NCBI GenBank assembly: GCA_041671125.1 | Contig: JBAZCA010000003.1 | Span: 689 to 64,688, forward strand | Source: Patescibacteria group bacterium | GTDB taxonomy: Bacteria; Patescibacteriota; Patescibacteriia; Patescibacteriales; JBAZCA01 | Direction: 5' to 3' | Length of the DNA stretch: 64,000 nt | Shown: one piece after another, positions 1-63,818 of the stretch | Numbering within the stretch: position 1 is the stretch's first letter | How the letters are laid out: each line of letters starts with the position of its first letter | Made by a program: the position numbers and the translations under genes | Notes under the pieces: model-generated | Database searches by the model: none | What the model was told of the DNA's origin: nothing | What the model saw: the letters and a program-made list of their open reading frames with translations, nothing else

Positions 1-40
1 TAATTGATCATTGGAAATTGTTCATTGATCATTGATTTCT

Positions 41-4490: not shown

Positions 4491-4533
4491 CAAATAACAG
4501 CCTGTGTTACGTGTTCCATGTTATGTGTTATGT
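4484..4533. repeat. inverted heptamer array (CATAACA-type units) between ruvC and the first pilin-fusion gene
   Basis: acacataacaaataaca / loop / tgtgttacgtgttccatgttatgtgttatgt. The two arms are reverse-complementary arrays with a 7-nt period. Confidence 0.7.
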
Positions 4534-4547
4534 TTAGATAAAACTCC

Positions 4548-10555: not shown

Positions 10556-10635
10556 CGTCATCCTGAGCGTAGCGAAGGATCCCGTGAACAGAGCTATTGC
10601 CACGAGATTCTTCGGCCTTCGGCCTCAGAATGACG
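10556..10635. repeat. GC-rich double-hairpin repeat (CGTCATCCTGAGC...CTCAGAATGACG family), copy 1
   Basis: Outer arms cgtcatcctgag / ctcagaatgacg and inner arms gaaggatcccgtg / cacgagattcttc. Flanked by inverted AAAATGN heptamers. A second copy lies at 37624-37726. Confidence 0.75.
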
Positions 10636-14731: not shown

Positions 14732-14735
14732 ATAG

Positions 14736-14841
14736 AATTTTTAATTTTGTAATTTTTAATTTCAAAATAATTTCTAATGTTTTAATGTTTAAAAATTTAA
14801 GCATTAATACATTATTTACAAAATTAAAAATTAAAAATTTT
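14736..14841. repeat. inverted AT-rich heptamer arrays in the rpoB-rpoC spacer
   Basis: gaatttttaattttgtaatttttaatttc (14736-14763) is reverse-complementary to acaaaattaaaaattaaaaatttt (14818-14841); 7-nt periodic units AATTTTN. Confidence 0.65.
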
Positions 14842-14855
14842 ATTATGTATCTTAT

Positions 14856-21679: not shown

Positions 21680-21703
21680 CTTGAATTGATTGATAATTGG
21701 TAA

Positions 21704-22292: not shown

Positions 22293-23612
22293 TCATAACC
22301 CATAGACCACAACACCTCTATTATCCGGGGCATGCTTTATAAGTCTTCTTAAGACGCTAAACTCAGGAATTAAAAAATTGCTTTCTATTAAAATCACCCG
22401 GTCGCTCCCGCCGTGCGCCTCAGCCAGATATTCGCCGGTCTCGGCGTCAGTCATATTATTCAGCTTCATTTTTATTATATCATAAACCGGGCTCACAATC
22501 TCAATTTCTTCGCCGACCCTTAACGTATTATGCACTTTAATACCTAACAAATATTTCTTATTTCTTACTTCTAACTTCTTGATTTTTACCACCTGCCCGC
22601 AAAATTCCCAATCGCAATTTTCTTTGGAAGTCGCGAGATTTTGCGCCAGCTTTCCCTCGTTAAAAAGAAACCCGGTCGTATAACCGCGGTTAAAAATTTT
22701 CTCTTCCAGATCGCTTTGCAACCGGCTGACCAGTTTAGCGTTACTCAAATTTTCCATGGCTTTTTTGTAAGCGCCAACCACGGTCGCGATATAATACACG
22801 CTCTTGGTCCGGCCTTCAATTTTAAAAGAAGTAACCCCGGCTTCAGCTAATTCCCGCAGATGTTTTATCAAGCACAAATCTTTTGAATTCAAAATATAAG
22901 AATAACCATCTTCCTCATAAAGTTCAAAGATGCCATTAACACCATCAGGGATGATCAACTTCTCACTTTTTACTTCTAACTTCTTACTTTTAACTTGATA
23001 CGGCCACCGGCAGGGCTGGACGCAGTCGCCGAGATTGGCGCTCCGGCCGGTTAAATATTTTGATAAAAAACAGCGACCCGAATAGGCCATGCACATGGCG
23101 CCATGGACAAAATATTCCAGTTCCAGTTTTGGCGCGGCTTTTTTTATGGCTTTAATATCTTTGAGGCTGGTTTCTCGCCCGAGAACAATCCGGCTGACAC
23201 CCTCTTTAAACCAGAACTTCGCGGCCGATGAATTTATACAATTCGCCTGGGTGGAAAGATGGATTATCGCTTTTGGCCAGATTTTTTTTACCGCGCTCAG
23301 TATGCCCGGATCGGAAATCACCAGGGCGTCCACTTTCATTTTTTTCATCTCCCGGATAATGCCGGGCAGTTTCTTAAAATGATCCTCGTGGGCGAAAATA
23401 TTAAACGTCGCGTAAACCCGCTTTTCCATCTTATGAGCGTAATCCACGGCTTTCTTAACAGACTTTAAATCAAAATCGTTAATCCGCGCCCGGAGCGAAT
23501 AATCCGGGATGCCGAGATAAACCGCGTCCGCCCCGAAAGCGAAAGCGGTCTTCATTTTTTCCAGGTTGCCGGCGGGAGCCAGGAGTTCAATTCTATTATT
23601 ATTCCTCATCAT
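22293..23612 (-). CDS. peptidase U32 family protein
   Basis: ELLAPAGNLEKMKTAFAFGADAVYLG and the ...EGR.KS..Y.. region. Contains two in-frame ACTTCTN heptamer arrays (22553-22587, 22958-22999). Confidence 0.85.
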   Translation of the reverse strand: MMRNNNRIELLAPAGNLEKMKTAFAFGADAVYLGIPDYSLRARINDFDLKSVKKAVDYAHKMEKRVYATFNIFAHEDHFKKLPGIIREMKKMKVDALVISDPGILSAVKKIWPKAIIHLSTQANCINSSAAKFWFKEGVSRIVLGRETSLKDIKAIKKAAPKLELEYFVHGAMCMAYSGRCFLSKYLTGRSANLGDCVQPCRWPYQVKSKKLEVKSEKLIIPDGVNGIFELYEEDGYSYILNSKDLCLIKHLRELAEAGVTSFKIEGRTKSVYYIATVVGAYKKAMENLSNAKLVSRLQSDLEEKIFNRGYTTGFLFNEGKLAQNLATSKENCDWEFCGQVVKIKKLEVRNKKYLLGIKVHNTLRVGEEIEIVSPVYDIIKMKLNNMTDAETGEYLAEAHGGSDRVILIESNFLIPEFSVLRRLIKHAPDNRGVVVYGL

Positions 23613-26190: not shown

Positions 26191-27111
26191 CTAGACATTC
26201 ATCCCCCGAAGCGCCGCGATTCTTTCCTCTACCGGCGGGTGGGTCATGAAAGCTTTGGCAAAAAATCCGGTTTTCTTCCGTCCGATCGCGTCGGATTTAA
26301 AGGGCGAAACAATATAAAGGTGGGCGGTCGCCCGGTTGGCGGCTTCCAGCGGTTCCCGGTCAGAGGAAATTTTTTCTAAAGCCCGGGCGAGTCCTTCGGG
26401 ATAGCGGGTTAAGAGCGCGCCGTCGGCGTCAGCGGCGAATTCGCGTTTTCGGGAAATGGCCATTTGCATGAGCATGGCAAAAATTGGCGCCAGAATGGAA
26501 AGAGCTATGGCGACAATCATGATTATGAGCTGTAATTGTCCGCCGCCGCGTTCTGAGTCCCGCCTTCTTCCGCCGAAAAAAGACCAATGCCGAAACCAGT
26601 CGGCGAGTAAAACTATCAAACCGACCATAACGGTTACGATAGTAGAAATTAAAATATCCCGGTTGCCGACATGCGATAATTCATGGGCGATCACGCCTTC
26701 CAACTCAGCCTTTTCCAGTTTCTGCAATATGCCGGTGGTAACCGCTATAACCGCGTGTTTTGGGTCGCGGCCGGTCGCAAAAGCGTTCGGCGCCGTGTCA
26801 TTAATAATATAAATTTTCGGCATTGGCAGTCCGGCGGTAATGCAAAGGTTTTCAACAATATGGTAAAGTTCCCTATTAGAATCGTGGTCAATGGGCCGGG
26901 CAGAGCTCATGGCTAAAACAATTTTATCGGAAAACCAATAGCTCGCGAACGAGGAAATCATGCTAAAACCCACGGCAATATATAAAATCGCCGAGTCGTT
27001 CATGGCCTGCGAAAAAACATAACCGACAATCATTATAAACACGAAAAACCCGGTCATTAGTAGCCAGGTTTTTCTTTTATTGGAATCGCTGTGAGTATAG
27101 AGGGTGGGCAT
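26191..27111 (-). CDS. htpX: zinc metalloprotease HtpX (M48)
   Basis: HELSHV zinc motif, four TM segments, and adjacency to lemA. Start moved to the ATG at 27111; the upstream MLCVTCPMLRV extension is encoded by a heptamer array. Confidence 0.9.
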   Translation of the reverse strand: MPTLYTHSDSNKRKTWLLMTGFFVFIMIVGYVFSQAMNDSAILYIAVGFSMISSFASYWFSDKIVLAMSSARPIDHDSNRELYHIVENLCITAGLPMPKIYIINDTAPNAFATGRDPKHAVIAVTTGILQKLEKAELEGVIAHELSHVGNRDILISTIVTVMVGLIVLLADWFRHWSFFGGRRRDSERGGGQLQLIIMIVAIALSILAPIFAMLMQMAISRKREFAADADGALLTRYPEGLARALEKISSDREPLEAANRATAHLYIVSPFKSDAIGRKKTGFFAKAFMTHPPVEERIAALRGMNV

Positions 27112-27181
27112 AACACGTAACATAGGACACGTAACACATAACAATTAATTATTTTTGTTACGTGCTATGTGTTGCGTTCAG
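27112..27181. repeat. inverted heptamer arrays (YRTAACA units) in the lemA-htpX spacer
   Basis: cataaca cgtaaca taggaca cgtaaca cataaca ... tgttacg tgctatg tgttgcg. The arms are mutually complementary. Confidence 0.7.
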
Positions 27182-28143: not shown

Positions 28144-29379
28144 CTATTTTATCCTTATATTTAACATTACCTTTTTTCCCCTCGCCTTAGTCGCGTAATA
28201 ACCGGTTAACAGTCCGGCAATCTCCAAAATATCTTCTTCACTCTTTATTTTCTCCATTTCAAGCCTCATTAAATCAAATTTTTCCGGAATTTTCATTTCT
28301 AATAAATCATTCTTAATTTGTAATTTGTAATTTGTAATTCGCATAAGCGTCGTCGGCCCCATCGTCCTTTCCAATCTTACCACGATATCCCCTTTTTTCG
28401 CCAGTCTTTCCAGTTTTTCGCTCTCAGCCTTATCCCGGCCGACTACAACTAAAACCCAATGGAAATTTATGTCGGCTTCCACTTTTACGTCTTTCAAATT
28501 CGCGCCGGTGAGCGATTTTAATGAATTCTTTAAAAATAAAGTAACTTTTGGCGTTTTTTGGCGTTTTCTCGCGGCTTCCGGCATGGCTAATTTCAGCCAA
28601 AACACCCGCCCGTGTTTTAACAATTCTACGTCTTCGGTTTTGCAATCCGGGCAATGAGTAATAATATCTAAAACTTTTTTTGACCCTTCCGGGTCGGTTA
28701 AAAGACAGCCGCCGGCGGGCGTTGGATAATCTTTAATGCCAAATTTTCCAGCCAATTTCATCTGCTCTTCTCTAGATCGGCCTTCAATATTCAGAAGCTT
28801 TTCCCGCTTTACCAGGCCTTTCTTTTCCATAGCCGTTTCCGGCAGGAGCCTCGCTGACAATGGCCGCAAAACCTCCACCCCCGCCATCCTTACCACTCTT
28901 AATAATGCTTCTTTATTTTGAGAAAACGGCCGCTGGCCAAGCACCTCGCCGGTAGCGATAAAGTCAAAAATGTCACATCCCCTCCCCGCGACGTCAGGAG
29001 TCGGGGAGGGGTTGGGGGTGGGGTGTTGCGGGAAAGACGAAGAAAGAATTTTCCGAGGAGCGGCTCCAGGTTTTAAATACTTACCAGCTTCGCGGATCAT
29101 GAGACTGTGGCAGTCTATGCAGGGATTCATGTTTTTTCCGTAACCGCAGGACGGGCATTTCACGATTGATAAAATCTTTTCCGCAAGATCCTCTTCAATC
29201 AAATTAATCTTAAGTTCCTTCGCGCTCTCCCGCGCCCGCTCGCAATTAAAAAAATTACTGGAAAAACAGATTCCAATAACTTCTATCCCCTGATTCATTA
29301 GCACTTTGGCGGCGAGCATTGAATCCAGTCCGCCGGAAAAAAGGACAAGAGCTCTCGCTTCATTTTTGCTTTTTCCCAT
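28144..29379 (-). CDS. PP-loop ATP pyrophosphatase family protein, tRNA-thiolation-like (ThiI/MnmA-related)
   Basis: SGGLDS PP-loop, NPCIDCH and ATGEVLGQRPFSQ motifs. Carries an in-frame GC palindrome (28979-29027) and a TAATTTG heptamer array (28314-28341). Confidence 0.55.
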   Translation of the reverse strand: MGKSKNEARALVLFSGGLDSMLAAKVLMNQGIEVIGICFSSNFFNCERARESAKELKINLIEEDLAEKILSIVKCPSCGYGKNMNPCIDCHSLMIREAGKYLKPGAAPRKILSSSFPQHPTPNPSPTPDVAGRGCDIFDFIATGEVLGQRPFSQNKEALLRVVRMAGVEVLRPLSARLLPETAMEKKGLVKREKLLNIEGRSREEQMKLAGKFGIKDYPTPAGGCLLTDPEGSKKVLDIITHCPDCKTEDVELLKHGRVFWLKLAMPEAARKRQKTPKVTLFLKNSLKSLTGANLKDVKVEADINFHWVLVVVGRDKAESEKLERLAKKGDIVVRLERTMGPTTLMRITNYKLQIKNDLLEMKIPEKFDLMRLEMEKIKSEEDILEIAGLLTGYYATKARGKKVMLNIRIK

Positions 29380-31027: not shown

Positions 31028-34000
31028 CTATTTTTTTACTATCCCTAGCCAAAGCTCTTGTCCTTCCACTTTCACATTTTTTTCCGCGAGAATTGCTTCG
31101 CTCCCGCCTTCGGCCAAAGCGTCGGCCAAAGTGTCCTTTATTATTGAGTCCCTGTAATTACTTATGGCTTTTTTTATTTCTTCATCAGCAGTCGCGTAAT
31201 AAATTTCAATCCGGTCTTTAATTGTCAGTCCGGCATCTTTTCGCATGCCATTCACCAGGCGGACAATTTCGCGTTTTACGCCTTCCTGCTTTAATTCAGG
31301 GGTGATTTTCGTGTCCAGCTCCACTTCCATATTACCTTTTCCGGAGCTCACAATCACATTTTTAACATTCACCTCGTCTTTTATTAATTCAACAAACTCA
31401 TTATCAATTCGTAATTCATAATTCTTAATTTTTAATTCATTCAATGGTTGTCTGACTTTTATTCCCGCCTCATCCCTTTTCGCCAGCGCCAATTCCACGA
31501 TTTGTCTGACCGTTTCCATATCTTTTAAAATTCTGTTGTCTGTTATCTGCTGTCTGTTGTCTAATTTTGGCCACGCTTCCAAATGCACCGATTTATTCTC
31601 ATCCTTAAAATCATTCCCGGTTATTCTCTGCCAGATATTTTCCGCCGAGAACGGCATATAGGGCGCCATGACTTTTACGAGCTGTGAAAGAACATGGGCG
31701 GTAGTCTTTATAGCCGCTTCTTTGTCTTTCTCGTCATCAGATTTAAACCGATCCCTTGACCTTCTTAAATACCAGGTTGATAAATCGTCAATAAATTCGG
31801 TAATCGGCCGGGCGCCGGAAGGCAAATCGTATCTTTCCAAAGCCGCGGTTACCTCTTTGGTAAGCTGGTTAAGCCGCGTCAGTATCCATTCATCCAAAAT
31901 ATTTTTTTTCCTTTCTTTAGAAACTCCCTCTCCCTGATCCGCCAGTTGGCGGAGAATAGGGGGAGGGACGGGGAGGGGGCTTGCGCCATCACCCGCAAAC
32001 ATTTCGTAAAACTTATAAACATTCCAAAGCAGGATTACGTTTTTCCGGAGCGAAGTTTGCAAATCCGTTTCCGAAAGGCTCATGTCGTCGCCGAGCATGA
32101 TAGGAGAAGACATAAAATACATTCGTAGAGCGTCGGAGCCGTATTTTTCCAGGGTCGCTTTCGGATCCGGGTAATTGCCGTAGGACTTGCTCATCTTCCG
32201 GCCGTCAGTCCCGGCGAGTACTCCGGTAGTAATAACATTTTTAAAAGCCCGGTCGCCAAACAAAGCGTTGCCAAGGACATGGAGATAATAGAACCAGCCG
32301 CGGAGCTGCCCGGTATATTCAATGATAAAATCGGCCGGGAAAAGATTTTTCCACTCATTTTTTCTTTCAAAAGGGTAGTGAAACTGCCCGAACGGCATAG
32401 CGCCGGACTCAAACCAACAATCCAAAACCTCCGGCACCCGGCGCATCAACCCGCCGCATTTATCGCAAGGAAATTCTGTTTCATCAATTCCGGGCTTATG
32501 CAAATCAGTTATTTTTTTCCCGCTTAACTTTTCCAGCTCTTCAATTGACCCGACCACTTTTATTTCCTTGCACTTATTCTCTTCCGCATTTTTGGAATTT
32601 GGAATTTGGAATTTGGAATTTCCCGTGCATTTCCAGACCGGTATGGGCGAGCCCCAGTAGCGCGAACGGGAAAGGCACCAATCCGGAGCCGATTCAAGGT
32701 TGTAGCGAAACCGGCCTTCTTTAAAATGTTCCGGCACCCAATTTATTTTTTCGTTAGTCTTAATCATCTTTTCCCGAATATCGGAAATCTTTAAGTACCA
32801 GGCTTTCTGCGCCTTATAGATCAAAGGCGTGCCGCAACGGTAGCAAAAAGGATAGCTATGGGTGTAGTCAAAAGAGGAAAATAGCCTTTCGCCCAAATCT
32901 TCAAAGACTTTTTTTCCGGCTTTGGAAAAATACTGCCCGGCCCAATCACCGGCGTTTTTCGTGTAAATCCCGTTTTCGTCCATCAAATCCACCATCGGTA
33001 AACCGGATTTTTTTCCCAGCTCAAAATCGTCCTCGCCGAAATTCGGGGCGATATGGACGATTCCGGTCCCTTCTTCGGTATTAACAAACCCGCCCGCGTA
33101 AATTTTAAACGCGTTCCTGTTTTCTTTTATTATTTCATTGCCTAAATCAAACAAAGGCTCGTATTCCAGTCCGAGTAAATCCTTGCCTTTTAATTCGGAG
33201 AGTAGCTTATATTCTTTTTCTTTAAAAATTTCTTCTGTTTTTTCCTTGGCTAAAACATATATTTCTTTACCGATCGCAACAACCTGGTAAACCACATCTT
33301 CTCCCACCGCCAGCGCTAAATTTCCCGGCAAAGTCCAAGGCGTCGTCGTCCAGGCCAGCATATAAACATCGCTGTTGACTTTTTCTTTCGGTAAATTCTT
33401 AATTCTTAATTCGTAATTCTTAATTCTAAATTTCACCACCACCGACTTTTCCCGGACATCTTTGTACGACCCGGCGTCCATGGTAATTTCAAACTTGGAC
33501 AAAGGCGTGGCGCAGCGCGGGCAATGGAGTGACGAACGGTAGCCTTCATAAATAAGGCTATCGTCATACAACTTTTTAAAAGCCCAGATAACGCTTTCCA
33601 TAAAAGAAAGATCCATGGTTTTGTAAGCGTTTCGCATGTCCACCCATCTTCCGATCCGGTTAATATACCATTCCCATTGTTCCGAGCCGACATTAACATA
33701 ATTGCGGCAGGCGGCGATGAATTTATCCACTCCGAGTTTTTCAATATCTTTTTTATTTCGGAGGCCTAGTTCCTGCTCAACTTTATTTTCGGCCGGTAAA
33801 CCGTGGCAGTCCCAGCCCCAAACCCGCTCCACCCGGTAACCTTTCATGGTCCAGTATCGCGGAACGACGTCTTTGGCAATGCTCGGCAATAACGTGGCGT
33901 AATGTGGCAGGCCGGTGATAAACGGCGGGCCATCGTAAAAAACATAATCAGGCGGATTTTTTCCCTCCTCACTAAGGAGGGGACTAAGGGGAGGTTTTGC

Positions 34001-34913: not shown

Positions 34914-34942
34914 ATCACATTAAACCTAAGCGCTTAACAAAC

Positions 34943-35081
34943 CCTCACCCCCGGCCCCTCTCCCGCTCCTAATCGTCGCGGTAAAGGGGAGCTGAAATAA
35001 TAAGGGTATTTTTTATTAAATTCATTCCTCTGGCTCCCCTCTCTATTAACATCAGTTAATGGAGAGGGGTTGGGGGTGAGG
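34943..35081. repeat. about 140-nt GC-armed structured element between pilin paralogues A and B
   Basis: Outer arms cctcacccccggcccctctcc / ggagaggggttgggggtgagg differ only by G.T-type mismatches. An inner 15-bp hairpin, cccctctctattaac/gttaatggagagggg, competes for the same right arm. Confidence 0.6.
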
Positions 35082-35092
35082 CAAACCCCATT

Positions 35093-37406: not shown

Positions 37407-37623
37407 AATTTTTCTTCTCTTTTAAAGAGAGTATAATAAATAGTTTAATTAAGGTTTTTTCCTCTGCAATAATTTTAGCATTTTCAGGATTTTGTTGCAA
37501 TGCTCACCTTGTATCATGTATTATGTATATTGTATCATGTATATCTTTTACCGCAACAGTAAAAATACCAGAACTTGCGCGTTTCGCGAATAAATATATT
37601 TTTTCATTCCGGCATTTCTTATC

Positions 37624-37726
37624 CCCCGTCATCCTGAGCGGAGTGAAACGGAGCGAAGGATCTCGTGTTTAGCGGAAATGCCACGAGATTCTTCGTCCCG
37701 AGTGCTCGGGACTCAGAATGACGGGG
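37624..37726. repeat. GC-rich double-hairpin repeat (CGTCATCCTGAGC family), copy 2
   Basis: ccccgtcatcctgagc...gaaggatctcgtg...cacgagattcttc..gtcccgag tg ctcgggac tcagaatgacgggg. Same orientation as copy 1 at 10556-10635. Confidence 0.75.
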
Positions 37727-37768
37727 TAAAAAAGCATTTCGTAATTCAAAGTAATATCAATAACAATC

Positions 37769-41470: not shown

Positions 41471-44137
41471 TTAATTTCCACTTTTAAGCTTTTCCAGCTC
41501 AATTTTCCAATTTTCCAGTTTTTCTTTTTCCTTTTTAATTATTTCCTCCGGCGCTTTTTCCATAAATTCTTTATTTTCTAAACGCCCGGTAAGCCCGCTG
41601 ATCATTTTTTCCAAACGCTCCACTTCTTTTTTTATCCGCTCTTTTTCCTTTACTTCATCAATCGCACCGACAAGGTAAATTTCAACGCCGCCGACTGCCG
41701 CGTGGATCGCTTTTTCAATTTTCTCTCCGGTTTCCAGAATTTCCAGTTCGTTGATACCGGTCCGAAGTCCTTTTATTAATCCGGCCTGCGATTCAATCAA
41801 TTTAATATCCTTTCCGGCATAAATTATGGCTTTGACTTTTTTCGCCGGTTCAACTTTATTTTCCGCCCGCGCGTTCCTTATGGACTTAATCACTTCAATT
41901 ACTATATCAAATCCGCTCTCCTCATATTCCGCCGCTTTTTCCTCCGGCCACTCGGTTATCAAAAGCGGCTTATCAGCGCCTAGTCCGCTCCAGACGGCCT
42001 CAGTAATAAAAGGGATAAAAGGATGCCAGAGTTTTAGTAATCCCTCAAGGACATATTTAAGAACTTTGTTCTTTTCGGATGTTTTTTCAAATTTGCTTAA
42101 TTCAAGATACCAGTCAGCAAATTCGCTCCGGGTGAAATCTCTTAGCTTTTCGCCGGCCTGGGAAAACCTAAAGTTGCTAAAATCATTATTAACCTGTTTT
42201 ATCAAAGCCTGAAATTTCGCCAAAATCCATTTATCCGCCAAAGTCAGATTAGCATTATTAAATTCCGAATTCCCAACGCCATTCTCCTGGTTAGAAAAAA
42301 CGAATAAGGAAATATTCCAGAGTTTAGTGATAAAATTCCTCGCGCCGATAATTTTTTCCTCGTAAAATTTTGAATCATTTCCCGGCGATACTCCTAAAAG
42401 GAGGCTCAGGCGGAGCGAATCAGTGCCATAGTCCCTTATTACGTCCAGCGGGTCAATATTATTGCCGGATGATTTTGAAAACTTCCGGCCCTTTTCGTCG
42501 CGCAACATGCCGTGGATATATACGTCGCGGAAAGGAATTTCATCTAGCGTGTAAGTCGTCATTAAAATCATCCGCGCCATCCAAAAAAATAAAATTTCAT
42601 AACCCATCTGCATCCAGGCAGTCGGATGGAATGTCTTTAAATCATCATTATCGGCGGGTTTACCCGCCGTAGCTTCAGCGGAGGCGGGCCACCCAAGGGT
42701 TGAAAAAGTCCATAACGCCGAAGAATACCAGGTGTCCAAAGTATCTTCGTCTTGGATCCACCCCTCGCCTTCCGGAGGTTCAATCCCAACATAAATATCT
42801 TCCAAATTTTTGGAATTTGGAATTTGAGATTTGGAATTTGCATACCATACGGGTATGCGGTGTCCCCACCAAATTTGCCGCGAAATGCACCAGTCGCGCA
42901 AATTATCAATCCAGTTTAAATAAGTCTTATGGAACCTCTCCGGAATGATGGTTATTTTTTGAGCCGGATCGTTATTTAAGCCGGCCTCAACCGCTTCCCG
43001 CATCAGGTCTTTTAAACTTTTTCCTTTTCCCGGGATGATTTTATTGACGCTTACGAACCACTGCTCTTTTATCTGAGGTTCAACCAAACCATCACTCCGA
43101 TCCCCTTTGGCGACCCGATGAATATAATCTTCTTCCACCTTAACCAAAAGATTTTTTTCTTTTAATCTTTCTATTATCTTCGGTCTGGCTTTTAGAATAT
43201 CCATTCCTGCAAACTCACCCGCGATCGGCATCAATTCGCCGTTAAAATCAATAATTTGTTCTCCCTCTAAATTGTGTCTTTCCGCGATTTCAAAATCAAC
43301 CATGTCATGCCATGGCGTAATAGTCATGACTCCGGTTCCAAATTCCGGTTCAATGATACTATCCTTAATTATCGTTGCCGTAACCTTTCCATTAATCCAT
43401 TCACATTCAAACTTATCACCGTGTTTGTATTGCGCGTACCGTTCATCATCCGGATGCATAACTACATATTTGTCGCCAAATTTGGTTTCCGGGCGGGCGG
43501 TCGCGATTACGAATGGGCCGTATTGAAGATAATAAAAGGGCGCTTTTTCCTCGTGCCAAACTATCTCGTCGTCGGAAATTGTAGTTTGGAGTTTTGCATC
43601 CCAATTAACAATCCTTTTTCCGCGATAGATAAGCCCGTCGTCGTACATTTTTTTAAAAACCGTATTAACCGCCAGGTTGCGCTCGTCGTCAAAAGTATAA
43701 GCCAGGCGCGACCAGTCGCAGGAAGTCCCCATCTTCCGAATCTGCGAAAGGATGGTGGCTTTTGATTCTTCGGCATATTTTTTTATCTCTTTTAAAAGCC
43801 CCTCACGCCCGAGTTCCTGCCTCGGATTTTTTACGCCCTTTTCCATTAAGAGTTTTTCCACTTTAGCCTGCGTGGCCACGGCCGCGTGATCGGTTCCGGG
43901 GACGAGAAGAACTTTTTTTCCGCACATCCGCTGATAACGAGCCATGACGTCCATGAGGGAGTTTTCTAAAGCATGCCCAAGATGCAAAACTCCGGTAACG
44001 TTCGGCGGCGGCATCATGATTGAATAGGGATCGCCTTTCAGATTATCAGGATTAAAAAAACCCGACTGTTCCCATTTTTCATAAATTCCGTCTTCGTGCT
44101 CGGCTGGGTTATAGGTTTTGGGCAATTCTTTTTTCAT
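41471..44137 (-). CDS. valS: valine--tRNA ligase
   Basis: PPPNVTGVLHLGHA, KFSKSSGN and a C-terminal coiled coil; 888 aa. In-frame TGGAATT array at 42811-42838. Confidence 0.97.
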   Translation of the reverse strand: MKKELPKTYNPAEHEDGIYEKWEQSGFFNPDNLKGDPYSIMMPPPNVTGVLHLGHALENSLMDVMARYQRMCGKKVLLVPGTDHAAVATQAKVEKLLMEKGVKNPRQELGREGLLKEIKKYAEESKATILSQIRKMGTSCDWSRLAYTFDDERNLAVNTVFKKMYDDGLIYRGKRIVNWDAKLQTTISDDEIVWHEEKAPFYYLQYGPFVIATARPETKFGDKYVVMHPDDERYAQYKHGDKFECEWINGKVTATIIKDSIIEPEFGTGVMTITPWHDMVDFEIAERHNLEGEQIIDFNGELMPIAGEFAGMDILKARPKIIERLKEKNLLVKVEEDYIHRVAKGDRSDGLVEPQIKEQWFVSVNKIIPGKGKSLKDLMREAVEAGLNNDPAQKITIIPERFHKTYLNWIDNLRDWCISRQIWWGHRIPVWYANSKSQIPNSKNLEDIYVGIEPPEGEGWIQDEDTLDTWYSSALWTFSTLGWPASAEATAGKPADNDDLKTFHPTAWMQMGYEILFFWMARMILMTTYTLDEIPFRDVYIHGMLRDEKGRKFSKSSGNNIDPLDVIRDYGTDSLRLSLLLGVSPGNDSKFYEEKIIGARNFITKLWNISLFVFSNQENGVGNSEFNNANLTLADKWILAKFQALIKQVNNDFSNFRFSQAGEKLRDFTRSEFADWYLELSKFEKTSEKNKVLKYVLEGLLKLWHPFIPFITEAVWSGLGADKPLLITEWPEEKAAEYEESGFDIVIEVIKSIRNARAENKVEPAKKVKAIIYAGKDIKLIESQAGLIKGLRTGINELEILETGEKIEKAIHAAVGGVEIYLVGAIDEVKEKERIKKEVERLEKMISGLTGRLENKEFMEKAPEEIIKKEKEKLENWKIELEKLKSGN

Positions 44138-47933: not shown

Positions 47934-48782
47934 TTAGGAAATATGCCTTTTCTTATAAAGCTCCAAAGTGTTCCGTAAAGTGATCGCCACGGTCATCGGC
48001 CCGACGCCGCCGGGCACGGGAGTAATATAGCCATCCAGGTCTTTTACGTCGGAAAAATCCACGTCGCCGTAAGTTGAACCCTGGTCGCGGGTAATACCGA
48101 CGTCAATCACGATCGCGCCGTTCTTAACCATGTTCTTTTTTATGAATTTCGGCCGGCCGATTACCGGAATTAATATATCGGCTTTCGCGGTTTTCTCCGC
48201 CAGTTCCGGATCATCAGGATGAACTTTTTCCGCTTTCGCGCCTTTGCAGGCAAAAACTTTTACCAGGTTGCCGCCGAATATTTCACTTTTGGAGACCACT
48301 GCCACGTTCTTATCCCGGACGTCATATTGCAGGCTCTTTAGCATTTCAAAAATAACGCCGTAAACCGGCGGCAGGATATGGCTTGAGTCGCAGGCGGTAG
48401 TAACGGGCAGAATATTTTTCGGATGAAAGCAGTCAACGTCTTTTTCCGGGCTGATCCGGGAAACGACTTCATCAGTATCGTAACCCATGTCTTTCGGCAA
48501 AGGCAGTTGGACTAAAATCGCGTCAATCGTTTCATCCTTATTTAAAAAATCTATGGTTTTTAAAAGTTCGGCCTGACCGACATTAGCCGGACATTTATAA
48601 AGATGCGTATCCACGCCGACTTTTTTTCCGGCTTCAAGTTTTTTCCGGACGTAAAGATCCGAATCCGGATTATCGCCGACTAAAACTACTGCCAGGTTCG
48701 GCCGCTCGCCCAGCTTTATGACTTCAGCCACGGTTTGATCATTTACTTTTTCCGCCAATTTTTTTCCGTCAATTATATTCAT
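47934..48782 (-). CDS. folD: bifunctional methylenetetrahydrofolate dehydrogenase/cyclohydrolase
   Basis: MNIIDGKKLA start, LVGDNPDSDLYVRKK, ILVQLPLP and PVPGGVGPMTVA. Start moved to the ATG at 48782; the upstream MSYGLRV extension is heptamer-encoded. Confidence 0.93.
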   Translation of the reverse strand: MNIIDGKKLAEKVNDQTVAEVIKLGERPNLAVVLVGDNPDSDLYVRKKLEAGKKVGVDTHLYKCPANVGQAELLKTIDFLNKDETIDAILVQLPLPKDMGYDTDEVVSRISPEKDVDCFHPKNILPVTTACDSSHILPPVYGVIFEMLKSLQYDVRDKNVAVVSKSEIFGGNLVKVFACKGAKAEKVHPDDPELAEKTAKADILIPVIGRPKFIKKNMVKNGAIVIDVGITRDQGSTYGDVDFSDVKDLDGYITPVPGGVGPMTVAITLRNTLELYKKRHIS

Positions 48783-48869
48783 AACTCGTAACCCATAACT
48801 CATAACCTGATCTCTGCAACTTTTTGTGATGAGTGAAAGTTACGAGTTATGGGTTACGAGTTATGAGAT
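48783..48869. repeat. near-perfect inverted heptamer arrays (RTAACYC units) in the glyA-folD spacer
   Basis: ataactcgtaacccataactcataac (from 48781) and gttacgagttatgggttacgagttatgag (48839-48867) are reverse complements with one mismatch, separated by about 32 nt. Confidence 0.8.
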
Positions 48870-50955: not shown

Positions 50956-52365
50956 TCACGCTTTTCCTAAAAACCTCTTCTTTCTTAAAAGCCGGTGATA
51001 GCCGATGGCAAAACGGTGGGCTTCGTCTCTGACCCGCTTAATTAAATGCAAGGCGGGCGAGGCGAGCGGCAGTTCCAAAGGAGTTTTTTCCCCGGCGAAA
51101 AAAAGCTTGTCCGGCGCTAAGGCTGATCTTAAACCTTCACCTTTTGAAATAGCGATTACCGGAATATCCAGTTTATATTTTTTCAGCGCGCGCAAAGCCA
51201 CGTTCAATTGCGCCTTGCCGCCGTCAATAATTACGAGGTCCGGCAAAGGCCAATTATCTTTCTCTCGCCCCCTCCCCTCTGATTCGCCAGCTGGCGGAGA
51301 TAGGGGGAGGTCAGGGAGGGGGTTTTTGCGAGAGAGAAAATGTTTAAATCTCCTCGCTAGCACCTCTTCAAGCATTTTTATATCCCCGCCGCGAGCCTTT
51401 AAGCCGGTAAAAATTATCTTATCCGCCTTAATCTTAAATTTCCGATACTGGCTTCTATCGGGCTCGCCGCCGGAAAATACCACCATTGATCCGACCGCCT
51501 CTCTGCCGAAAATATTAGATATATCATAGCCTTCAATCCGTTCAGGCACAACCGGCAATGACATTATTTTCGCGAGTTCCAGAACGTCGTTTTGGTATTT
51601 TTCCCCGATACTTATAACCCGGGACATTTCAATAACTTTTTCTATATTTAACAAACGATAATTAAGGAGGTCAATATTTTTTTCCAACAATTCTCTTTCT
51701 TCTCCGTTAGCCGGTAAATTTTTAATTCGTAATTCATAATTCTTAATTCTTTTCTTTATATCGTTAACCACGTCCTTTTTCCTTCCTTCTAAAAATCTTA
51801 TGACCTGTTTTACGTACTCAAGATACTCTTTATGGCTGATTTTTTTTTCGCACATTCCGGCGCACTTACCAACGTAATAATACAGGCAGGCGCGTTTTGG
51901 TAAATTATAGCAAGTTCGGTAGGGCCAGATCCGACGGATGATTTTTAAAGTTTCACGCACCGCCAGTCCTGAAATAAACGGACCGAAATATTTTCCGGAT
52001 TTATCAATCGTCCGGGTGGAGTAAATCCGCGGCCACTCCTCTTCAACGGAAACCTTTATATAAGAAAAGCGTTTGTCGTCGCGGAACAGGATATTGTATT
52101 TAGGCTGATATTTTTTTATCAGGTTAGCTTCCAGTAAAAACGCCTCTACTTCGCTTTCCACTGTTATCCATTTTACGCGCGCGATTTCCCCGACCATGCG
52201 CTCTTTGGCCGGCGTAAGACCAGAACCTTTTTGCCAATATGAAAGAACGCGGGATTTCAGGTTTACCGCTTTTCCCGCGTAAATAATTTCCCCGGCGCCG
52301 TCAAAAAATTCATAACAGCCGGGAGATTCGGGAATGTTCAATTTTTTTATTTGTTCCAGCTTCAT
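50956..52365 (-). CDS. uvrC: excinuclease ABC subunit C, short form (469 aa)
   Basis: GIY-YIG (PGCYEFFDGAGEIIYAGKAVNLKSRV) and an RNase H-like endonuclease region (IEGYDISN, DGGKAQL, DEAHRFAI). It ends before any (HhH)2 domain. Carries an in-frame heptamer array and a GC palindrome. Confidence 0.85.
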   Translation of the reverse strand: MKLEQIKKLNIPESPGCYEFFDGAGEIIYAGKAVNLKSRVLSYWQKGSGLTPAKERMVGEIARVKWITVESEVEAFLLEANLIKKYQPKYNILFRDDKRFSYIKVSVEEEWPRIYSTRTIDKSGKYFGPFISGLAVRETLKIIRRIWPYRTCYNLPKRACLYYYVGKCAGMCEKKISHKEYLEYVKQVIRFLEGRKKDVVNDIKKRIKNYELRIKNLPANGEERELLEKNIDLLNYRLLNIEKVIEMSRVISIGEKYQNDVLELAKIMSLPVVPERIEGYDISNIFGREAVGSMVVFSGGEPDRSQYRKFKIKADKIIFTGLKARGGDIKMLEEVLARRFKHFLSRKNPLPDLPLSPPAGESEGRGREKDNWPLPDLVIIDGGKAQLNVALRALKKYKLDIPVIAISKGEGLRSALAPDKLFFAGEKTPLELPLASPALHLIKRVRDEAHRFAIGYHRLLRKKRFLGKA

Positions 52366-52411: not shown

Positions 52412-52507
52412 CATTATTCATAATTCGTAATTCATAATTCAATTTTTTCATTTTACATTGTCATTTTTATTTTCCCGCCCGACTGAACGCCAGTCGTTCG
52501 GGCGGGT
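52412..52507. repeat. heptamer array plus CCCGCCCG...TTCGGGCGGG hairpin, intergenic copy
   Basis: cattatt cataatt cgtaatt cataatt caatttt ... then cccgcccgactgaacgccagtcgttcgggcggg followed by tgattttt. Related to the in-frame rpoB copy at 16811-16858. Confidence 0.7.
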
Positions 52508-54133: not shown

Positions 54134-54323
54134 GAGATGCGAGCATTGAAAAATTTCGGCGATAATCGCGAGCGTAGAAAGTGTGCAAAATTCCACTGCT
54201 TGAGGAGTCCCGCCATCAGGCGGGGCGACGAGTTTGGAATTTTGCTAGCTTTCCTAGCGAGTGATCCGAAATTTTTCCTGCTCGCGATTTTTGCGCCACT
54301 TTTTCTAAAAAAGTGGCAAAAAG
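54133..54323 (+). ncRNA. about 190-nt highly structured repeat element (unclassified), copy 1, filling the proS-proC spacer
   Basis: Nested long-range helices (gcgagcattgaaaaatttcgg/ccgaaatttttcctgctcgc; gcaaaattcca/tggaattttgc; cccgcc/ggcggg) plus a 3' hairpin gccactttttctaaaaaagtggc. The second copy at 61544-61730 shows compensatory changes. The strand and RNA nature are inferred. Confidence 0.5.
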
Positions 54324-56422: not shown

Positions 56423-56499
56423 TATCCCGCGAATCAGCAGGCATTTTTATAAATGTATAAATATTTGTGCATTTGTGAAATAATTTGTTGATTTGTAAT

Positions 56500-57805: not shown

Positions 57806-57822
57806 TGTTAATTTTCTCCCTG

Positions 57823-57896
57823 TGCGCCCAGATGGACTTGAACCATCGACCCCGGCTTTATAAGAGCCGTGCTCTAACCAGCTGAGCTATGGGCGC
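57823..57896 (-). tRNA. tRNA-Ile (anticodon UAU)
   Basis: 74-nt cloverleaf: GCGCCCA/TGGGCGC acceptor, CGGCT-CTTATAA-AGCCG anticodon arm (TAT at positions 34-36), GATGG-TTCAAGT-CCATC T arm. Confidence 0.85.
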
Positions 57897-61374: not shown

Positions 61375-61448
61375 GGACAATTAGCTCAGTTGGTTAGAGC
61401 GCACGCTTCACACGCGTGAGGTCGGAGGTTCGAGCCCTCCATTGTCCA
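61375..61448 (+). tRNA. tRNA-Val (anticodon CAC)
   Basis: 74-nt cloverleaf: GGACAAT/ATTGTCC acceptor, CACGC-TTCACAC-GCGTG anticodon arm, GGAGG-TTCGAGC-CCTCC T arm. Confidence 0.9.
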
Positions 61449-61452
61449 CGAA

Positions 61453-61540
61453 TAAGGTTCGTCCAGCATTCGCTCCCCGCCCGGCGGACTTGTCTGGCGT
61501 ATGCTGGATGCCGGGCGAGTCCACTAGTGACCACAAAAAA
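61453..61540 (+). repeat. conserved tRNA-Val trailer, copy B
   Basis: Differs from copy A only at GGAC->CCCC and CGT->TGA. Inverted relative to copy A. Confidence 0.8.
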
Positions 61541-61543
61541 ACC

Positions 61544-61730
61544 AGAGATGCGAGCATTGAAAAATTTCGGAAAAATCATGAGCGTGGAAGCCGTGTAAAA
61601 TTCCACTGTCTGAGGACCCGCCGAATCGGCGGGGACGAGTTTGGAATTTTACTAGGCTTCACAGCGAATGATCCAAAATTTTTCCTGCTCGCAATTTTTG
61701 CGCAACTTTTTCTAAAAAAGTTGCAAAAAT
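61544..61730 (+). ncRNA. about 190-nt highly structured repeat element, copy 2
   Basis: Collinear with 54133-54323. Helix changes are compensatory (gtaaaattcca/tggaattttac, gcaac/gttgc, gaagcc/ggcttc). Followed by a terminator. Confidence 0.5.
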
Positions 61731-61752
61731 CCATCGCGCAAACTGCCTCTAT

Positions 61753-61786
61753 AAAAAAACGCTTTAAACAAAAAGCGTTTTTTTTA
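61753..61786. terminator. bidirectional intrinsic terminator (end of the tRNA-Val/trailer/element unit and of clpP)
   Basis: aaaaaaacgcttt aaacaa aaagcgtttttttt; the stem is flanked by an A-run and a T-run. Confidence 0.65.
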
Positions 61787-61808
61787 ATTCACTTAAACCC
61801 GCGACTCT

Positions 61809-62387
61809 CTACTTCGTAATAATCTTATCAATAATCCCGTATTTCTTCGCTTCTTCGGCGCTCATAAAATTATCACGGTCAGTATCTTTTTCTATGGTCG
61901 CGAGTTTTTGCCCGGTGTGGCCGGCTAAAATATTATTCAGCCGGTCTTTTAATTTTAAAATCCGCTCAGCGCCGATTTTTATATCGGTCGCCTGCCCCTC
62001 AATCCCGCCCATGATCTGATGGATCATTATTTCCGAATTCGGGAGAGCGAATCTTTTGCCTTTAGCTCCGGCGGCGAGTAAAAACGCGCCCATGCTGGCC
62101 GCGAGGCCGACGCAGATTGTTGAGACGTCCGGCTTTATATACTGCATGGTGTCATAAATAGCGAGGCCGGACGAAACCGAGCCGCCCGGGGAGTTTATAT
62201 AAAATTTAATTTCCTTGTCTTTATCCTGGGCGGCTAAAAATAAAAGTTGGGCGATAACGATATTGGCCGTATGGTCGCCGATCGGTTCGCCTAAAAATAT
62301 GATCCGATCCTTTAAGAGCCGGGAATAAATATCGTAAGCCCGTTCGCCGTGGCTGGATTTTTCAATGACTGTTGGTATTAATGGCAT
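61809..62387 (-). CDS. clpP: ATP-dependent Clp protease proteolytic subunit
   Basis: [33 protein letters not shown] (catalytic Ser) and MIHQ (His). Start moved to the ATG at 62387 (MPLIPTVIE). Confidence 0.95.
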
Positions 62388-62470
62388 ATTTTTCTCATAA
62401 CTCATAACCCATATCTCGCAACGCCTGTTTATAAATCGGGTTATGGGTTGCGCTTTATGGGTTGCGAGAA
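62388..62470. repeat. inverted heptamer arrays (CATAACY/CGCAACC units) in the clpP 5' UTR
   Basis: ctcataactcataacccatatctcgcaac ... gggttatgggttgcgctttatgggttgcgag; arms are complementary. On the mRNA strand the proximal arm supplies ATG triplets at 7-nt spacing just upstream of the clpP start. Confidence 0.7.
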
Positions 62471-62667: not shown

Positions 62668-62992
62668 AGATGAGCCGGGGTTCCAAGTTGAAGCACCCCG
62701 CCTTAAAGAGGCTTTCCCGCCTCTTTTCATGTGGTAGCTCAAAGGGGCTACACCCGGCTCAGGCTAGTGCTCTTTTCATTTACAACGTGAACTTAACCCA
62801 AAATAGGGAAAATGCGACGCCCGGAAAGGAGAAATTAGATCGCAACGGAACACCCTCCCGGAGAATCCGGAGAGGGAGTAAAGAGGCCGCAAGGAGCCGC
62901 CTCCCTCGCATTTCGGAGGGAGGCGGCGCAACGCAAGGGCCGGTTTTATTACGGCCAAAACAACGGATTTCCAACTTTTGGAGGTGTAAAAG
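62668..62992 (+). promoter_or_regulatory. about 320-nt GC-rich multi-hairpin leader (unclassified structured RNA candidate)
   Basis: Hand-found helices:
- 62672-79/62753-60 (GAGCCGGG/CCCGGCTC), which encloses 62705-12/62719-26 and 62734-38/62747-51
- 62853-62876
- a perfect 12-bp stem 62896-907/62916-927
- 62938-62956
The leader ends in the SD GGAGGTG (62980-62986). Confidence 0.4.
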
Positions 62993-63445
62993 ATGGTACA
63001 GCAACTGATCGAGCAATACCGCCCCCCGATTCTGGCAGGAAACCGGATCCCGGCTCCCTTACTGAGTGAAGCCATGGTCGATCCTCGTCATCTGCAGCTC
63101 AACACCAAACCCTTCAACTACATCGAAGCCAAGAACCCGCTGAAACCCGACACTGTTCTGACCGTTGTTATGGAAACCGGAGCCTCTTCCCGCATCTGCG
63201 ACGCCGTGGCCAGCTCCGCTCTACTGCAGGCTCATGAAGCGCGCGTGGTCTACGTCGATGGTATCTGCTGTCTGGTTCCCGAGGGTACGCCCAACAATCT
63301 CAACAAGGGCTTCGGTGAAGATCGCAGATTCGGGCATTTCTGGCAGGGTACCGGTGCGGCGCGGATGAAGTTGCGGCAGACCGGTTGGACAAAGCTGAGC
63401 GGACATCTGGATCTCCGGCGCGACGGCAATGTCGACGGCCGGTAG
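62993..63445 (+). CDS. orphan 150-aa protein in a compositionally foreign cassette
   Basis: GGAGGTG lies 6 nt upstream of the ATG. Codon choice (CTG, GCC, AAC, ATC, CGC) is unlike neighbouring genes. Two hand-counted 60-nt lines each give 37/60 GC. No motif recognised. Several overlapping antisense ORFs look like GC artefacts. Confidence 0.5.
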   Translation: MVQQLIEQYRPPILAGNRIPAPLLSEAMVDPRHLQLNTKPFNYIEAKNPLKPDTVLTVVMETGASSRICDAVASSALLQAHEARVVYVDGICCLVPEGTPNNLNKGFGEDRRFGHFWQGTGAARMKLRQTGWTKLSGHLDLRRDGNVDGR

Positions 63446-63638: not shown

Positions 63639-63648
63639 TCGCGCTTTT

Positions 63649-63748
63649 GTCTGAACCACTGATTATCACTGATTAAAATGATTTCACTGATTTAATAATC
63701 AATAATCAGTGTAATCTGAGAAATCACGTGCTAATCTGTGGTTCAGAC
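63649..63748. repeat. 100-nt palindromic heptamer region upstream of the relB/dinJ-like gene
   Basis: gtctgaaccac (63649-59) / gtggttcagac (63738-48) enclose repeated cactgat(t) units and their complements (aatcagtg). Confidence 0.65.
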
Positions 63749-63818
63749 AAATAGTATTGACAATTAAATAAAAAAGCAATACACTATAATTATAAATACC
63801 AACAAAATAAATAATATT

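Follow-up and report, generated by a model that had tools for sequence, protein, structure and literature searches.

Short heptanucleotide repeat arrays within and between genes of a Patescibacteria bacterium, including an inverted pair that spans the glyA-folD junction

This work concerns a 64,000-nucleotide (nt) stretch of DNA, referred to here as the window, from a Patescibacteria group bacterium (GenBank assembly GCA_041671125.1, contig JBAZCA010000003.1, positions 689 to 64,688) and, within it, the spacer between the genes glyA and folD. The minus strand is the sense strand for both genes. Pfam matches placed SHMT (glyA) upstream and FolD downstream of the spacer, and likewise backed the gene names lemA, htpX (M48), rpoB, rpoC, ruvC and clpP used below. 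The genomes nearest to the window were Patescibacteria metagenome-assembled genomes (MAGs) labelled Falkowbacteria, Kuenenbacteria or Parcubacteria. The window also carries T4SS-pilin gene clusters.

The glyA-folD spacer (48779-48866) is an 88-nt hairpin composed of two inverted arrays of four heptamers each. On the minus strand, the glyA stop codon TAG is followed by ATCT, the 5' arm, a 32-nt loop, and the 3' arm with the folD ATG at its end. The 5' arm (48839-48866; CATAACT CGTAACC CATAACT CGTAAC in the mRNA sense) begins 4 nt past the glyA stop. The loop (48807-48838) is unique sequence, the sole other copy found by blastn-short in 1.9 Mb being that of the orthologous spacer in the related locus L083. 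The 3' arm (48779-48806) reads GTTATGA GTTATGG GTTACGA GTTATG(A), and the folD start codon (48780-48782) is buried in its final heptamer. A preliminary description of this DNA had recognized a two-armed hairpin with one mismatch at this site, which we confirmed, with arms of 28 nt that are 96% complementary. The RNA was predicted to fold with -50.1 kcal/mol (z -12.3 versus dinucleotide shuffles) into a stem of ~30 bp. The order of variant units in the 3' arm mirrors that in the 5' arm, which argues for copying between the arms.

Past the glyA stop, the 5' arm places a TAA in each of the three frames, and the 3' arm presents ATG in two of the three ahead of the true folD start. The earlier arithmetic, by which a 7-nt period brings TAA and ATG into several frames, is correct for the CATAAC/GTTATG family of units. 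Because of the upstream ATGs in the 3' arm, FolD received a spurious 7-amino-acid (aa) N-terminal extension, MSYGLRV. This extension, anticipated in the preliminary description, is indeed part of the 289-aa FolD in the ENA gene call for the 174-kb metagenome contig (ERZ27249449). A scan of 48783-48869 for promoter- and terminator-like consensus sequences found no site, and a terminator or promoter reading of the spacer was rejected on that basis. The stem runs into AAUAUAAUUGAC, which is folD coding sequence, with no U-tract of the kind found in intrinsic (Rho-independent) terminators. In an Rfam scan of the window, three tRNAs were the only hits at the gathering score, and the hairpins matched no RNA family.

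Arrays were mapped as lag-p self-match segments scored against local shuffles, with Tandem Repeats Finder (TRF) used in parallel. Under strict thresholds, the window contained 11 arrays at period 7 and none at periods 4-6, 8, 9 and 11-13, and none were found in the local shuffles. Looser thresholds yielded 20-28 period-7 arrays as opposed to 0-9 for other periods, the count of 20 standing beside 0-3. TRF returned ~30 period-7 arrays, in agreement with the lag-7 segment scan. Period 7 thus exceeds chance by a wide margin.

The arrays had been said to mark gene boundaries throughout the window, and this was true of some spacers. However, only 4 of the ~35 spacers of at least 25 nt were built of heptamers (whole-spacer lag-7 identity of at least 0.44), and 17 of the 31 catalogued arrays, including 12 of the 14 cleanest, were located in coding sequence. 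Intergenic enrichment depended on the threshold and vanished as stringency rose, from 8 of 23 arrays (P = 7e-4) to 5 of 20 (P = 0.03) and 2 of 14 (not significant). A comparison of k-mers between intergenic and coding DNA produced no sharp motif.

Arrays within genes are translated through, in frame, as peptides with a 7-residue period such as RIKNYELRIKN. At the exact phase where a perfect unit would create an in-frame TAA, a variant unit with TAC or TAT is found. These arrays form AT-rich islands within GC-richer coding flanks. Four of them, all on the minus strand, lie in the isoleucyl-tRNA synthetase (IleRS) gene, and an alignment of 16 IleRS sequences placed the first three at hypervariable insertion hot spots. 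Site 1 (33394-33432) encodes aa 225-238, KFRIKNYELRIKNL, and matches the UvrC array at 36 of 39 nt. Site 2 (32591-32621; aa 495-505, GNSKFQIPNSK) falls within a 16-aa CxxC-knuckle insertion that most homologues lack, and site 3 (31532-31562; aa 848-858, LDNRQQITDNR) has the unit AGACAAC. Site 4 (31406-31440; aa 889-900, NELKIKNYELRI) is not an insertion, as homologues of the clade read ELRI.NYELR at equal length.

The valyl-tRNA synthetase (ValRS) gene contains an array (42809-42840, minus strand; ANSKSQIPNSK) at a position homologous to IleRS site 2. It shares 33 of 36 nt with the IleRS array there and, when aligned, falls on the Zn-knuckle segment of T. thermophilus ValRS (1GAX). Further minus-strand arrays are found in uvrC (51717-51751; KRIKNYELRIKNL), where relatives have a segment of equal length, in a ThiI-like gene (28314-28339; RITNYKLQIK), and twice, again in frame, in a U32 peptidase gene, at 22552-22585 (KIKKLEVRNKKY) and 22957-22996 (QVKSKKLEVKSEKL). 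A FemAB-family coding sequence holds an inverted pair (21324-21445, minus strand), with CAAATTC x3 at 21324-21343 and TAATTTG x4.7 at 21413-21445. The two arrays flank native coding sequence, encode NYKLQIPNYKL and NLEFGIC, and were predicted to fold with -37 kcal/mol (z -5.1). Finally, a plus-strand array of TCTGTTA x4.6 (5574-5605) encodes FCYLLSVFCFL within the hydrophobic N-terminal stretch of a hypothetical membrane protein, where the unit has the opposite orientation relative to the gene. Selection at the protein level for the encoded peptide was rejected, since the same arrays also occur untranslated in a 5' untranslated region (UTR) and as inverted copies.

Three of these genes also contain small GC-rich palindromes that are in frame and absent from homologues: uvrC (51271-51310), the N-terminal part of IleRS (33940-33975) and the FemAB-family gene (21281-21336). 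Their peptides or sequences are PLSPPAGESEGRG, PLSPLLSEEG and GICLPEADPPLAE, and the FemAB palindrome is flanked by direct CAAATTCCAAATTC repeats. They recall Rickettsia palindromic elements.

Outside coding sequence, five convergent array pairs were found in spacers and UTRs of the window, in addition to the pair within the FemAB-family gene. The inverted arrays described earlier at lemA-htpX, rpoB-rpoC and the clpP 5' UTR, all on the minus strand, were borne out. The lemA-htpX hairpin (27109-27181; arms 27115-27136 and 27156-27177) consists of ACRYAAC and GTTRYGT units, with a predicted -26.1 kcal/mol (z -4.4), and the htpX ATG is in register with its 3' array. In the rpoB-rpoC spacer (14726-14843; arms 14726-14759 and 14816-14843), inverted AATTTTT and AAAAATT arrays enclose a 56-63 nt centre (predicted -21.1 kcal/mol, z -2.7), and the rpoC ATG is part of the stem base. 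The clpP hairpin (62396-62468; arms 62396-62422 and 62437-62468) has CATAACC- and GGTTATG-type units (predicted -25.2 kcal/mol, z -4.4), and its 3' arm reaches the start codon. At the fifth site, the plus-strand spacer between ruvC and a pilin-like gene (4481-4537), the inverted repeat is present, with 19-nt arms of CATAACA and TGTTATG units (4481-4499 and 4519-4537), but the predicted fold is weak and not significant (z -1.2).

Simpler arrays fared unevenly. Period 7 was assigned by TRF to a degenerate ATTGATC array that adjoins and overlaps the start of the mannose-1-phosphate guanylyltransferase gene (3-36, plus strand), to a degenerate TGTATCA array between divergent genes (37510-37542, strand undefined), and to an array in the 5' untranslated spacer of uvrC (52412-52441, minus strand; sense strand GAATTATGAATTACGAATTATGAAT). 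The last of these has its variant units in the same order as the arrays in coding sequence and is identical across two independent assemblies. By contrast, the array proposed at 56455-56499 has a period of 20, and 21680-21703 is not detectably periodic. The array proposed upstream of relB corresponds to a long, strong inverted repeat at 63646-63751 (predicted -48 kcal/mol, z -9.2), but its CACTGAT motifs are spaced by 9-10 nt rather than 7, so that it is not a heptamer array. It lies downstream of two small unannotated open reading frames (ORFs; 62670-63445) and could be an operator or antitoxin-type site.

We then evaluated how common the arrays are in relatives, whose loci were labelled with L-numbers; the sister locus L082 is ENA ERZ27247094 k141_260316. 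IleRS-centred loci of 80 species, 1.3 Mb in total, contained 151 period-7 arrays versus 7-44 for other periods. This excess was patchy: density peaked at 9.7 arrays per 10 kb, in a Kuenenbacteria MAG, and fell to zero in ~35 mostly more distant loci. The window itself has 3.1 arrays per 10 kb, compared with ~0.5 per 10 kb in diverse FolD loci. Among 174 arrays, the length distribution was narrow (3-5 units, median 28 nt), AATT was found in 51% of units (background, 10%), and the GC content of units was 21% versus 38%. Some units recurred across genomes (AAGAATT, AATTACG, AAATTAC, AAAATTG and AAATTAG), and pairs of arrays shared units more often within a genome (25.7%) than between genomes (14.5%; permutation p < 0.002). 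An inverted partner accompanied 31 of 209 arrays and a direct partner 21 of 209 (at least 80% identity, pooled), a difference that favors inverted partners only mildly and is confounded by AT-rich low complexity. Inverted array pairs were also present in L036, L022, L083, L082 and L015.

At the glyA-folD junction, L083 (FolD 87% identical) has the same hairpin and loop, but its 3' arm is a homogenised (GTTATGA)x4 and one unit of the 5' arm differs (predicted -37.7 kcal/mol). The spacer holds an unrelated GC-rich element in L084 (FolD 85%), unrelated sequence of ~60 nt in L085 (75%) and TAAACTATG in L086 (65%). In L088 and L089/L093 (FolD ~50%), it contains other heptamer arrays, which abut the ATG and are in register with it. 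At lemA-htpX, the window has a CATAAC-type hairpin in common with L082 and L015, where the flanking proteins are 94-97% identical; the three differ mostly by transitions and have the same copy number. L036 and L022 have significant hairpins made of wholly different heptamers at this junction, and six genomes (L018, L021, L025, L041, L044 and L049) have spacers of 8-20 nt. With L086 at glyA-folD, the minimal spacers at the two junctions span 3-20 nt. Three substitutions separate the arms of L083 from those of the window, two giving mismatches and one a wobble pair; no compensatory change was found in the spacer hairpins, for each of which one or two orthologs were available. Nor was there an asymmetry between sense and antisense stability (5 against 3 independent cases). 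Spacer hairpins thus last over short evolutionary distances and arise repeatedly, yet are dispensable.

The preliminary description had suggested looking in sister genomes for arrays conserved in position but not in sequence, and several sites behaved in this way. In L082, whose IleRS is 81% identical, arrays are found at the same sites 1-3. The units at sites 1 and 2 are AACTCAA and AGACGAC as opposed to AAGAATT and AAATTCC in the window, and the unit at site 3 is related (AGACGAC versus AGACAAC). The L082 IleRS was called as two ORFs (843 and 164 aa) whose breakpoint coincides with the site 3 array, AGACGAC x3.4 (L082 8208-8265), and taking out one 7-nt unit restores the downstream frame. 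The break may be genuine or a phase-off allele, may reflect heterogeneity within the population, or may stem from a misassembly. In the ThiI-like gene, the L015 array has GAATTAC where the window has AAATTAC, with the same A/G change across three consecutive units, a case of concerted evolution; in L082, the site is occupied by non-periodic, GC-richer sequence of identical length. The UvrC site has a degenerate array of a different unit in L083 and is non-periodic in L085, again at the same length. Copy number was equal in the spacer arrays of the window, L082, L015 and L083, and the single change in unit number was that in the L082 IleRS.

Protein identity between L015 and the window was a mosaic: LemA and HtpX were 94-96% identical, the syntenic IleRS 54%, and neighbouring pilin-like proteins 43-62%. 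This pattern suggests recombination or very uneven rates.

One function first proposed for the arrays was that of a frame-independent stop/start insulator. The results do not support this proposal. The TAA and ATG property is limited to one unit family, and the hairpins at rpoB-rpoC and in L036 and L022 have no ATG-bearing arm. Moreover, close relatives lack the element (L084, L085 and L086), and most clean arrays lie inside ORFs, where they are unable to insulate.

The glyA-folD hairpin belongs to a whole population of short heptamer arrays with AT-rich AATT or TAAC cores, a population common, patchily, to a Patescibacteria clade of Falkowbacteria/Kuenenbacteria-like MAGs. Arrays hold the same sites in sister genomes while their units change in concert, and they can replace native sequence at equal length. 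Locations within genes, in frame and at variable loops of housekeeping genes, are no rarer than locations in spacers, and the arrays therefore look more like the outcome of a peculiar mutational and homogenising process than like dedicated gene-boundary signals. On balance, we favor the reading that they are heptanucleotide simple sequence repeats (SSRs) produced by mutation and homogenisation in a 7-nt register, with selection acting as a filter and hairpin occlusion arising as a side effect.

Under this reading, replication or repair working in a 7-nt register would both create the arrays and maintain their period. Within an array, copying would proceed by slipped-strand or transient misalignment; short template switches onto the complementary strand would mirror one arm to the other; and one array would occasionally convert another. 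Selection would only filter the outcome, such that stop-free units survive in ORFs, protein length is kept, and spacers retain what is tolerated. Shine-Dalgarno (SD)-like motifs are nearly absent upstream of ~50 genes of the window, and start contexts are A/U-rich. Because of this near absence and of the predicted -50 kcal/mol stem, the folD AUG would be buried. Since the stem base joins the glyA stop to the folD AUG, translation of folD would hinge on ribosomes that terminate at glyA, and mRNA protection by the stem is conceivable as well. Such start-codon occlusion or translational coupling is a plausible consequence of the hairpin; it would be incidental or under weak selection, not the work of a dedicated insulator.

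Several results weigh against a purely mutational origin. Free slippage predicts a long-tailed distribution of copy number and local seeds, whereas the arrays are held tightly at 3-5 units. Their units are strongly non-random, as the excess of AATT demonstrates, and they stand as AT-rich islands in GC-richer coding flanks. Spacer arrays show no differences in copy number among the window, L082, L015, L083 and independent assemblies, and so are not hypermutable. Near-identical arrays of 36-39 nt at unrelated loci, one of them with a non-periodic TTACCG tail, look more like copy-paste than like growth in situ. The hairpins that arose independently at lemA-htpX in three lineages could reflect selection for a hairpin. 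No polymerase or repair determinant was identified.

The strongest competing explanation, which we nevertheless consider doubtful, is that the spacer hairpins are adaptive intercistronic RNA elements that occlude or couple start codons in an SD-less genome, act as mRNA barriers in the manner of repetitive extragenic palindromic (REP) sequences, or both, the heptamers being merely their building material. The stems at glyA-folD, lemA-htpX and rpoB-rpoC extend from 4-12 nt past the stop codon to the AUG, but a palindrome placed in a minimal spacer spans stop to start trivially. The predicted folds are very stable (z -4 to -12), SD motifs are almost absent, and read-through is expected given the lack of a terminator-like U-tract. 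The hairpins are kept in L083, L082 and L015, where flanking proteins are 85-97% identical, and have been built from different heptamers at lemA-htpX in L036 and L022; however, the same junctions lack them or hold other sequence in L084, L085, L086 and the six genomes with 8-20 nt lemA-htpX spacers. Selection on pairing receives no support from the three non-compensatory arm substitutions or from the symmetric stability of sense and antisense strands. In addition, only 4 of ~35 spacers have such hairpins, while the same arrays are found in frame within genes, with one inverted pair inside the FemAB coding sequence.

A broader and more speculative scenario, improbable in our estimation, would combine mutation with use. 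Here, a previously unrecognised form of templated mutagenesis or short-patch conversion in this Patescibacteria clade would write and maintain ~28-nt heptamer patches with an AATT or TAAC core, direct or inverted, in genome-specific dialects. The patches would overwrite tolerant loops of essential proteins such as IleRS, ValRS and UvrC and build stop-to-start hairpins that are exploited for coupling in the absence of SD motifs.

Spread by copy-paste or molecular drive, likewise improbable and ranked just behind, would also give genomes their own dialects. It would proceed through elements like REPINs (REP doublets forming hairpins) with their RAYTs (REP-associated tyrosine transposases) or like miniature inverted-repeat transposable elements (MITEs), through ectopic gene conversion, or through recombination resembling that of uptake sequences in naturally competent bacteria. 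The narrow length, the AATT bias, the AT-rich islands and the near-identical arrays are unexplained by simple slippage, and this rival therefore stays alive. It would account for the similarity between arrays at paralogous or unrelated loci (IleRS/ValRS, IleRS/UvrC with its non-periodic tail), although stop avoidance forces similar orders of variants, making such similarity partly convergent. It would also fit the higher unit sharing within genomes, with orthologous sites differing in unit between sisters as each genome re-uses its own units, and the replacement of native sequence at equal length by AT-rich patches of ~28 nt; other dispersed palindromic elements are present in the genome. Yet the hairpin loops are unique, with no dispersed copies, and the arrays carry neither terminal inverted repeats nor target-site duplications, nor do they have a conserved core. 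A wide variety of units coexists, and start codons are in register with 3' arrays, favoring local seeding. Neither a transposase, a RAYT nor a reverse transcriptase was found among the 40 window proteins compared with Pfam, the window being 64 kb of a larger genome.

Very unlikely, in our view, is the possibility that the arrays are sites for a repeat-reading protein, either a CtsR- or SARP-like regulator of heptad operators or an RNA binder of the S1, Csp or CsrA type acting on leaders. Arrays do abut start codons in several lineages (folD, htpX and clpP in the window; L088 and L089/L093), htpX and clpP are stress genes, and a hypothesis of the same kind has been proposed for TAACTGA repeats (PMC4679880). 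However, the unit varies from site to site and between sisters at a single site, no motif is common to the arrays beyond AT-richness, most clean arrays are in coding sequence, and hairpin pairing would mask binders of single strands. An RNA thermometer controlling htpX and clpP was rejected as well, because its stems would need to be far less stable, and neither folD nor rpoC belongs to the heat-shock genes.

Although assemblers can be misled by short repeats and one sister gene, the L082 IleRS, is frameshifted at an array, there is next to no chance that the arrays are assembly or sequencing artefacts: two independent Logan assemblies of different runs were 100% identical to the window across 2.1 kb with one untranslated and one coding array, which for practical purposes refutes an artefact, MAGs from other studies and assemblers carry orthologous arrays and hairpins (L083, L082 and L015), and arrays of 17-40 nt are below read and k-mer length.

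The preliminary description had not recognized a known class of repeats, but heptanucleotide SSRs have been described, as the dominant class of long SSR in many bacteria, with polymerase slippage proposed as their source (Mrazek 2007, as cited in PMC4679880 and PMC4692102). The window arrays, being head-to-tail direct repeats of 7 nt with period 7 dominant, fit that class. Like the long heptanucleotide SSRs of Mrazek, Guo and Shah (2007), as far as the citing accounts relate, they are 7-nt tandem repeats of an over-represented period, with a patchy distribution and a function mostly not established. They differ from those accounts in being found in Patescibacteria, in being short (3-5 units) and of many unit types, and in that the cleanest are in frame in housekeeping genes even though 7 is not a multiple of 3. 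A contingency-locus SSR, a long perfect tract at or ahead of surface or virulence genes that often switches its unit number, was rejected, as the arrays are short, imperfect, located in housekeeping genes and stable between samples.

Xanthomonas GGGAATC and Nostoc GGGGA(T/C)T repeats (Rehm et al. 2015, PMC4692102) resemble the window arrays in being intergenic, in their mode of four units, and in forming convergent pairs able to fold into stem-loops; in Xcc, 70 convergent pairs were counted among 186 repeat patterns. They too are found at the same junctions in sister species with variable length and sequence. Each, however, has a single G-rich unit with G-quadruplex potential, as opposed to many AT-rich units (GC 21%) with no G-tracts in the window. 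They are 89-93% intergenic and usually nearer the end of the upstream gene (PMC4692102), whereas more than half of the window arrays are intragenic and fusion to the start codon occurs.

TAACTGA repeats of marine Beggiatoaceae, cyanobacteria and Bacteroidetes (MacGregor 2015, PMC4679880) share a TAAC core and precede start codons by a few nt, in leaders poor in SD motifs. The same position is occupied by arrays at folD, htpX, clpP and rpoC, and in L088, L089/L093 and L036. In the forward orientation TAACTGA repeats stop all three frames, and in reverse they are read in ORFs as peptides of 7-aa period. Unlike the arrays described here, they consist of one conserved unit genome-wide and hardly ever occur inverted (170 sets included a single indirect repeat). 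Copies inside ORFs mostly fall in hypothetical proteins or at the ends of proteins (PMC4679880), not in the cores of aminoacyl-tRNA synthetases as in the window. No TAACTGA array was found in the window, where the nearest units are CATAACT, CGTAACC and CACTGAT.

Rickettsia palindromic elements and Borg tandem repeats (PMC9879509) are likewise inserted in frame at tolerant sites, adding peptide segments. The former are mobile palindromes of 100-150 nt rather than 7-nt units. Borg ORF repeat units are multiples of three (PMC9879509), whereas the 7-nt unit of the window arrays is read in three phases and closes a cycle of 7 aa. A literature search combining Patescibacteria with simple sequence repeats or heptamers found no description of such arrays.

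Hairpins between cistrons also characterize REP sequences and bacterial interspersed mosaic elements (BIMEs), which can make the mRNA upstream of them more stable and influence translation of what follows. A REPIN is reportedly formed by two inverted repeats around a short spacer, a structure attributed to work by Bertels and Rainey in 2011. REPs are conserved, of high copy number and mobilised by RAYTs; in the window, arms and loops differ by site and arms are 7-periodic. Near-identical palindrome copies were not found, the arms and loops being unique except for orthologs, and no RAYT (IS200/IS605-like Y1 transposase) was detected among the 40 window proteins. The heptamer hairpins also lack the terminal inverted repeats, target-site duplications and dispersed copies of MITEs. 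A MITE or REPIN identity was rejected after blastn-short searches of loops and full elements against 1.9 Mb returned orthologs only and Pfam scans showed no transposase. Cyanobacteria have, in one lineage, families of tandem heptanucleotides dispersed intergenically, the short tandemly repeated repetitive (STRR) sequences that Mazel and colleagues reportedly described in 1990 and that PMC4692102 mentions. These have three defined, GC-richer units and are not known to have been described as start-occluding hairpins or in-frame protein segments.

Thus, the arrays are best read as heptanucleotide SSRs and fall outside the Xanthomonas, TAACTGA, REP/REPIN, MITE, terminator and contingency-locus families. 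What is new is the phylum, the many AT-rich unit types and the frequent in-frame copies, not a class of insulator. Heptanucleotides are the commonest class of long microsatellite in bacteria, and neither their preference for 7 nt nor their function is understood. This lineage is informative in that it combines tiny genomes and little spare DNA with many units, in-frame arrays in essential enzymes, concerted evolution and stop-to-start mirror copies. If mutational, the arrays would be a strong, lineage-specific source of novelty in protein loops and spacers within the Candidate Phyla Radiation; if the hairpins are functional, they would offer a way of coupling translation in genomes without SD sequences. 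The arrays are also a practical hazard for annotation, creating false N-terminal extensions, false frameshifts and spurious ORFs.

The window contains other elements of different types. Three spacers of 390-540 nt in this otherwise compact genome (9124-9587, 18324-18867 and 34106-34496) had no ORF of at least 80 aa and no Rfam match. A near-perfect palindrome of ~180 nt is present in two copies that are 84.5% identical (54134-54312 and 61545-61719; predicted -96.8 kcal/mol, z -10.5), with a third copy in L083 (4907-5058) downstream of folD. It is a dispersed, MITE-like element without an Rfam match, and the ORF at 61442-61819 that overlies its second copy is probably spurious. Between pilin-like genes, 34935-35090 is a GC-rich inverted-repeat element (CCTCACCCCC...GGGGGTGAGG, predicted -76 kcal/mol). 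A partial copy at L084 73-113 occupies the glyA-folD spacer in place of the heptamer hairpin. Two palindromes with common GTCATCCTGAG ... CTCAGAATGAC arms, at 10557-10635 and 37619-37731, may represent another dispersed family of spacer hairpins. Lastly, a tRNA-Ile with a UAU anticodon, uncommon in bacteria, is encoded at 57822-57896 and adjoins tRNA-Val(GAC).

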